A stretch of 64,000 bases of DNA. Source: Escherichia phage V18. This document shows positions 39,306 to 40,132 of the stretch, in pieces. The stretch lies in sequence record NC_041937.1, one strand, 5' to 3'. Numbering within the stretch: the first letter of the stretch is position 1; the number at the start of each line of letters is the position of its first letter. The notes below the pieces were generated by a model. The model was given only the letters and a program-made list of their open reading frames with translations, searched no databases and was not told the DNA's origin. The translations under genes were made by a program, and so were the position numbers.

Positions 39306-40132
39306 TGGAGGCACTTTGAGCAAGAAAGAGTCCAACGACAAATACTACACAAACCCTGAGTATGCAGAATATCTTGTTGGTAAAGTAAAAGATAAGTATG
39401 GGAATTGTGCATACGTTGAGCCTTCTGCTGGAAGGGGTTCTTTTTCAAAACTATTTTCAGAGATACTGTCGTACGATTTAGTACCAGATCCTGAATTTGA
39501 AGGACCAACACCGTGCATTCAGGCAAACTTCTTGGAGGTGCATCCCAAGGCAGATGTCTTCATAGGTAACCCACCATTTGGCAAGAATTCATCCTTAGCT
39601 TGCAAATTCTTTAACCATTGTGCATCATTGCTAGAGCTTGGAGGGGCTATAGCCTTCATCTTGCCACGGACATTTGAAAAAATTTTTTTCAAACAAACTG
39701 GACATGTCGATGCACCTTGTCTACAGCGAAAGGTGCCCTAAGAATTCGTTTTTACTTAATGGCAAACCTTATGACGTGCCATGTGTTTTCCAAATTTGGG
39801 AGAAAAAGGCGTGCAATAGGGATCCTGTAGAGATTGGAGAGAATAAGTTATTTTCTTTTAGCACACCAGATGACTACGACTTCTGTGTAAGACGTGTTGG
39901 GTATAATGCTGGAAAAGTATTGGGGGATGATGACCCAAAATCTGAAGAATCAACATATTTCATAAAATCTTTAGTTAACGGTGTTGACAGAGTGTTTGCT
40001 GAATGCTATTCTTCTTTTCAAGAAGAAGCAGGTAAGACTGCTGGAATGAAGAGTATAGGTAAGAAAGAACTACAATACATTTTGGAGACCAGGTATGATC
40101 AAAAGCATAGACTTGACCAAAGAACTTACTGA
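39286..40132 (+). CDS. N6-adenine DNA methyltransferase, frame change at homopolymer tract near 39671-39700
   Basis: EPSAGRGSF (motif I) and IGNPPFG (motif IV) in first ORF; second ORF continues in another frame after A6T7 tract; start codon unclear (no ATG). Confidence 0.55.

Follow-up and report, generated by a model that had tools for sequence, protein, structure and literature searches.

A gene that changes reading frame partway along its length raises the question of whether the break belongs to the organism or to its sequence record. We examined this question for a putative adenine methyltransferase gene in Escherichia phage V18 (NC_041937.1), using a stretch of 64,000 nucleotides that we refer to as the window. 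The gene reads as two open reading frames (ORFs) that meet at a run of six A followed by seven T (A6T7), and the original prediction had offered two interpretations of this tract: a phase-variation switch, or an indel introduced by sequencing. The window is an rV5-like Vequintavirus genome whose best 20-kb match was to rV5_ev147 (hereafter ev147; 98.5%), the closest among the genomes listed, and its 1-kb region at this locus matched 119 phage records at 90-99.8%.

The window sequence does contain the frame change. Positions 39670-39700 read ACATTTG, A6 (39677-39682), T7 (39683-39689) and CAAACAAACTG, and the methyltransferase gene switches by +1 at this A6T7 tract (39677-39689, + strand). With the intact ev147 protein as tblastn query, residues 1-125 matched frame 1 (100% identity at 39316-39690) and residues 122-272 matched frame 2 (98.7% identity at 39677-40129). 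The change thus occurs exactly at the tract, and this part of the original prediction was borne out. The upstream ORF (frame 1) ends in a stop codon at 39739-39741 and overlaps by 68 nt with the downstream ORF (frame 2), which is open from 39674 to 40132. Residues 1-125 of the methyltransferase, its authentic N-terminal part, are encoded at 39316-39690 on the + strand, and the authentic C-terminal part (residues ~127-272) occupies 39692-40132 on the same strand, with its stop codon at 40130-40132 and a match to positions 137-290 of phrog_5172. Beyond the break the first ORF runs out of frame: 39691-39741 (+ strand) translates as KQTGHVDAPCLQRKVP and a stop, a tail that has no counterpart in the family in an alignment of 51 homologues and is an artefact of the frame break. 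An A6T6+ sequence occurs once in the window versus 0.09 times expected by chance, and besides T7 the 64 kb contain a single other homopolymer of at least 7 bases. Runs of this length are nearly absent in the relatives as well, with one T9 in ev147 and one run of 8 in slur16.

It had also been noted that the first ORF lacks an ATG and begins inside a terminator hairpin, leaving the true 5' end of the gene unclear. The description is accurate for the mechanically called ORF, which begins at a TTG at 39286, but this TTG is not the gene start. A terminator scan placed the intrinsic terminator of the upstream DnaQ-like exonuclease gene at 39278-39307 (+ strand), where the hairpin AGGGAGGCTTGCGCCTCCCT (39278-39297, kept in four relatives) is followed by a T-rich tail, and position 39286 falls within the hairpin. 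Independent annotations of rV5, ev147, inoa and bov10K2 all put the start at the equivalent of another TTG, at 39316-39318 on the + strand, which lies downstream of the hairpin and its T-run and is preceded by the ribosome-binding site GGAGG (39307-39311) with a 4-nt spacer. The N-termini of homologues fall within a few residues of this codon, and D8 and T12 are invariant. Since no in-frame ATG is present ahead of the catalytic motifs, the TTG start is genuine and conserved rather than a sign of damage, and the 5' end of the gene is clear.

In relatives the gene is a single intact CDS of 819 nt, as seen in rV5 (ORF100), ev147, inoa, bov10K2 and slur16, and the same single CDS is present in two independent Logan assemblies. 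The rV5 (ABI79166.1), ev147 (VUF54290.1) and slur16 (YP_009177541.1) proteins are encoded at the same locus, between the DnaQ-like exonuclease and phrog_9938 genes. The window copy shares with its Vequintavirus orthologues the TTG start, the length after repair and, in its two halves, the near-complete identity given above; unlike them, it is two bases short at A6-TA-T6 and reads as two ORFs. In alignments, the relatives carry either A6-T-A-T6-G-C, encoding Ala, or A6-T-A-T7-C, encoding Ser, both of which are in frame, and the comparison of GAAAAAATATTTTTTGCAAAC in relatives with GAAAAAATTTTTTTCAAAC in the window gives a net change of -2 nt. The tract encodes E121-K122-I-F-F, part of a conserved LP(K/R)TF-K segment. 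The natural in-frame Ala-to-Ser variant, GAAAAAATATTTTTTTCAAAC, is found in a cluster representative (P0001) and its Logan contigs, and the window tract equals this Ser variant minus one TA/AT; the flanks of the tract, in contrast, are those of the ev147 (Ala) haplotype and not of the Logan Ser haplotype. When the two bases were put back in silico, the repaired gene encoded a 272-aa protein.

The tract allele of the window was found in none of the 119 phage records, and exact-pattern scans detected no match to it in IMG/VR or in the JGI metagenomes. A 61-nt tract query matched no phage record at 99% identity or above, and neither the N-terminal fragment nor either of two versions of the C-terminal fragment exists on record as the exact product of a called gene. 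The wild-type 63-mer was matched exactly by 59 of the 119 records, and its in-frame spacing of 63 nt was present in all of the ~90 records seen individually, with the exception of vB_Eco_Alma (OV101294.1; hereafter Alma), which has 62 nt due to a change of T6 to T5 in the tract (-1 nt). Alma is a second low-quality record and not evidence of biological variation: 12 of its 56 genes are frame-split by the same test that we applied to the window, and its own annotation shows the thymidylate synthase, exonuclease, terminase and tape measure genes as split.

The product of the gene is the 272-aa putative N6-adenine methyltransferase of rV5-like Vequintavirus (rV5 ORF100), annotated as a putative DNA N6-adenine or SAM-dependent methyltransferase. 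It is a member of phrog_5172, which has no assigned PHROG function, and only its N-terminal half matched PHROG DNA-methyltransferase families (phrog_799, E 3e-13). Motif I (EPSAGRGSF, residues 35-43, 39418-39444) and motif IV (NPPF, residues 85-88, 39568-39579) can be read from the translation in the order typical of the gamma class, whose target-recognition part is C-terminal. A homology search found 794 proteins. The 120 listed have lengths of 239-395 aa, almost all within 250-295, and align over 80-100% of the query; every one of these therefore spans both halves of the split gene. In 51 homologues E35, P36, A38, G39, G41, F43 and G84-G89 are invariant and S37 nearly so, and invariant residues are located on both sides of the tract, including GNPPFG (motif IV), P117, F120 and K122. 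No curated family model in Pfam gave a significant match: Eco57I (PF07669) scored 16 bits, under its cut-off of 25.3, the match to MTS was also below cut-off, and PF26055, which is listed for some homologues, was not reproduced in our Pfam search. Searches of NCBIfam and of PDB sequences likewise returned no match. The assignment as an adenine methyltransferase, made originally from the sequence, is therefore reasonable with regard to both motifs, their order and the predicted fold, although the Pfam scores stay under their cut-offs.

An AlphaFold2 model (pLDDT 93.5) displayed the class I Rossmann methyltransferase fold. The nearest solved structures in a Foldseek search of the PDB were M.BseCI, HsdM of StySJI, CamA and M.TaqI, together with the tRNA methyltransferases TrmN and Trm5; the matches to gamma-class enzymes had E-values of 1e-7 to 1e-5, a probability of 1.00 and TM scores of 0.4-0.48 on the catalytic domain. 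The phage protein resembles M.TaqI, M.BseCI and CamA (gamma class; Eco57I, PF07669) in having motif I before motif IV and in its predicted Rossmann fold, and differs from them in its size (272 aa versus 380-550) and in having no detectable sequence similarity to any PDB chain. Taken with the motifs, the model suggests that the protein is likely a small gamma-class-like amino-methyltransferase; DNA adenine is the likely substrate, although the tRNA amino-methyltransferases TrmN and Trm5 scored equally well. No partner restriction enzyme accompanies the gene, which makes the methyltransferase an orphan, and the rV5 genome paper contains no methylation or restriction data. In the model, the break lies beyond strand beta-5 (111-117) of the Rossmann fold; were the break real, the N-terminal fragment would end before the final two strands and the C-terminal domain and could be expected to have no activity. 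We also observed a second methyltransferase gene, intact, at 53381-53911 (+ strand), which encodes a Dam-like protein of 177 aa with 99.4% identity to the ev147 'Phage DNA N-6-adenine methyltransferase'. A real loss of the split gene would still leave the phage with one methyltransferase.

Frame breaks are widespread in the window. We took the 101 ev147 proteins with a match of at least 80% identity in the window and scored a gene as split when the halves of the protein matched in different frames. By this test 13 of the 101 genes were frame-split, compared to 0 of 63 in slur16. The split set comprises the genes for a tail protein, the tape measure, Tc1 tail-completion, the terminase large subunit, an RNA-ligase-like protein, a homing endonuclease, the methyltransferase and NrdD, along with five small or hypothetical genes. 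Most of them retain ~95-100% identity on both sides of the break (96-100% for the terminase large subunit, tape measure, tail completion and tail protein), and only NrdD, at 82% in its divergent N-terminal part, and a few of the small proteins fall below this. Frame-breaking indels are thus present in genes that cannot be inactive, and the sequence flanking them has not decayed. Because a plaque-forming lytic phage cannot carry all of these lesions with flanks that show no decay, the record must contain frequent indel errors.

The indels themselves are mostly small. In clean context we counted 35 indels relative to ev147 in 61 kb, of which 20 were 1 nt long (15 deletions), 17 of these 20 being in runs of at least 2 bases. 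Three were 2-nt deletions: CC at 10045, the methyltransferase tract, and AT at 63819, which also splits an ORF. Breakpoints of 1-2 nt at 7971, 11560, 15502, 17907, 22997, 29598, 34610, 48772, 51252, 59634, 59895, 61960 and 63819, mostly a single G or C lost from GG or CCC runs, split at least 12 other genes, slur16 shows none of these breaks, and the density of frame-breaking indels is ~1 per 5 kb of coding sequence. No global homopolymer compression was detected, as runs of at least 6 bases were as frequent in the window as in ev147, and the errors therefore affect short runs. In addition, the capsid module (18380-19730) is ~1.1 kb shorter than in ev147, the loss being divided over three chunks: the ORF of the major capsid protein has 274 aa versus 335, the head-decoration gene is essentially absent, and a neighboring protein of 325 aa is cut to 115 aa. 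This shortfall looks like an assembly collapse or a chimera.

Given a record with this many errors, the break in the methyltransferase is very probably an error of base calling or assembly as well, and the real phage most likely has an intact gene. In the real phage, 39316-40132 would constitute a single gene for a 272-aa orphan SAM-dependent methyltransferase. A TA/AT dinucleotide would have been dropped from the low-complexity sequence A6-TA-T6/7 during base calling or assembly, and its loss would have fused the two runs into A6T7 and shifted the frame. At about one frame-breaking indel per 5 kb, an error within an 819-nt gene is unsurprising. Assemblies rich in indel errors, such as that of Alma, have many essential genes split by indels of 1-2 nt with near-identical protein on both sides; the split methyltransferase differs from these in nothing material and most likely belongs to the same class. 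The missing 2 nt, a tract allele seen in no other sequence searched, a gene that relatives carry intact, and numerous frame-breaking indels elsewhere in the window, in essential genes, are all observed; from them we infer that the tract indel is of one kind with the other indels of the window. The same evidence, with 12 further frame-split genes of which several are essential, supports the sequencing-indel interpretation offered by the original prediction. Two observations do not sit easily with an error. Two bases were lost from a non-homopolymeric TA, whereas the indels of the window are mostly 1-nt losses from short G/C runs; the window and Alma are hit within the same 15-nt stretch, as would also be the case at a real mutational hotspot. 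In addition, a true null in this probably dispensable gene would be tolerated and look identical. On balance, the split is not a biological feature but a probable indel, and the underlying gene is a known, conserved putative orphan methyltransferase of Vequintavirus.

Such a true null is the alternative that survives best, and we regard it as unlikely. It would require that slippage or misalignment during replication removed TA from the low-complexity A6-TA-T7 of this isolate, so that a dispensable methyltransferase was truncated after beta-strand 5 and became inactive. Because the natural Ser variant A6-TA-T7-C exists, a single 2-nt deletion would be enough to produce the window allele, and a 2-nt event is atypical of the mostly 1-nt errors of the window. 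The gene is probably dispensable in the laboratory, as Vequintavirinae have been reported to be exceptionally susceptible to restriction-modification systems (PMC8594841) despite carrying it, and the second, Dam-like gene is intact. However, the tract is flanked by the Ala haplotype, and descent from the Ala form needs two changes rather than one. Moreover, no cleanly sequenced relative has a frameshift in this gene (Alma being the sole exception among the ~90 records seen individually, and 59 being exactly wild type), and the 64 kb contain at least 12 more frame-split genes, several of them essential, so that indel errors in this record are demonstrably frequent.

Phase variation fares considerably worse. 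According to this idea the A/T tract is a contingency locus at which slipped-strand mispairing switches the methyltransferase ON and OFF, and we consider it highly improbable. Homopolymer switches in mod and hsdS genes are well known in Haemophilus, Neisseria, Helicobacter and Campylobacter, and the present case resembles the phasevarion methyltransferases of bacterial pathogens in that the frame changes at an A/T-rich run in a methyltransferase gene. Two further points are in keeping with a switch: the window (-2) and Alma (-1) differ within the same 15 nt, and, in a simulation, shortening the T7 of the window to T6 brought the gene back into frame with a product of 271 aa. The run is nevertheless a poor substrate for slippage. 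Efficient slippage requires a homopolymer of ~8 or more, or several tandem units, and runs of 6 or 7 are short in this respect; the window has A6 and T7, and the relatives have the interrupted forms A6-T-A-T6 or A6-T-A-T7, in which no run exceeds 7. Among close relatives we found no ON and OFF alleles, as ~90 inspected records share the 63-nt spacing (59 of them with identical sequence) and only the error-ridden Alma differs. Both deviant records, the window and Alma, have a dozen frameshifts elsewhere. Furthermore, a single slippage step of the usual +/-1 does not return a -2 allele to the ON state, except at the cost of one residue in the conserved K122-N127 spacing. In contrast to phasevarions, the run here is short and interrupted in relatives, no population polymorphism is seen, and the record is error-ridden; the phase-variation interpretation was accordingly not supported. 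We also give very little credence to the broader notion that A6-TA-T6/7 serves the orphan methyltransferase of strictly lytic rV5-like phages as a crude ON/OFF switch, or is a true hotspot of mutation, with the window (-2) and Alma (-1) as real OFF alleles.

Recoding of the split gene into a full-length enzyme, by a programmed +1 ribosomal frameshift on TTT TTT C or by slippage of RNA polymerase on T7, has a negligible chance of being correct and was rejected in both forms: a +1 slip on the T-run or the loss of one U from the mRNA would yield ...EKIFSNKLD..., which is nearly wild type, but the product would be one residue short in a conserved segment, no stimulatory element was identified, T7 is shorter than the runs known for efficient transcriptional slippage in E. 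coli, and recoding is needless in the relatives, every one of which carries a plain in-frame gene.

An uncritical reading of the window would produce two false gene calls, each a 'methyltransferase fragment', and a mistaken example of phase variation in a phage. The same caution applies to the dozen other split genes of the record (terminase, tape measure, NrdD and others), and frame breaks in this sequence should be treated as errors in annotation and comparison pending re-sequencing.

Several minor features of the region and of the window were also apparent. Shortly downstream of the methyltransferase, an 8-nt tandem duplication of ACACAATG relative to ev147 (40576-40591) is found at the start of a small gene (40589-40780), in which the second ATG is still usable. 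In the terminase large subunit gene, a 9-nt duplication of AAGCAAACC relative to ev147 (23005-23013) adjoins a 1-nt deletion. An intergenic repeat array at ~27290-27460 (27354) has one 21-nt unit fewer in the window than in ev147, and the Alma record annotates four copies with a 21-nt period; near this array, the T9 of ev147 is T6 in the window (27291). Twenty unannotated 'Campylobacter phage' records (MG065635-MG065690) are 95-99.5% identical to E. coli rV5-like phages at the methyltransferase region, and their host label looks doubtful. Finally, nrdD in the window (48500-48870) has several small indels and only ~82% identity to ev147 around residues 287-388. In slur16 (L009, 48783-50000) and in one Logan contig (L012, 18364-20819) nrdD is divided here by an HNH endonuclease gene, and the terminase gene of slur16 is likewise interrupted, by ~420 nt. 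The divergent patch in nrdD may be a co-conversion tract of a homing endonuclease.
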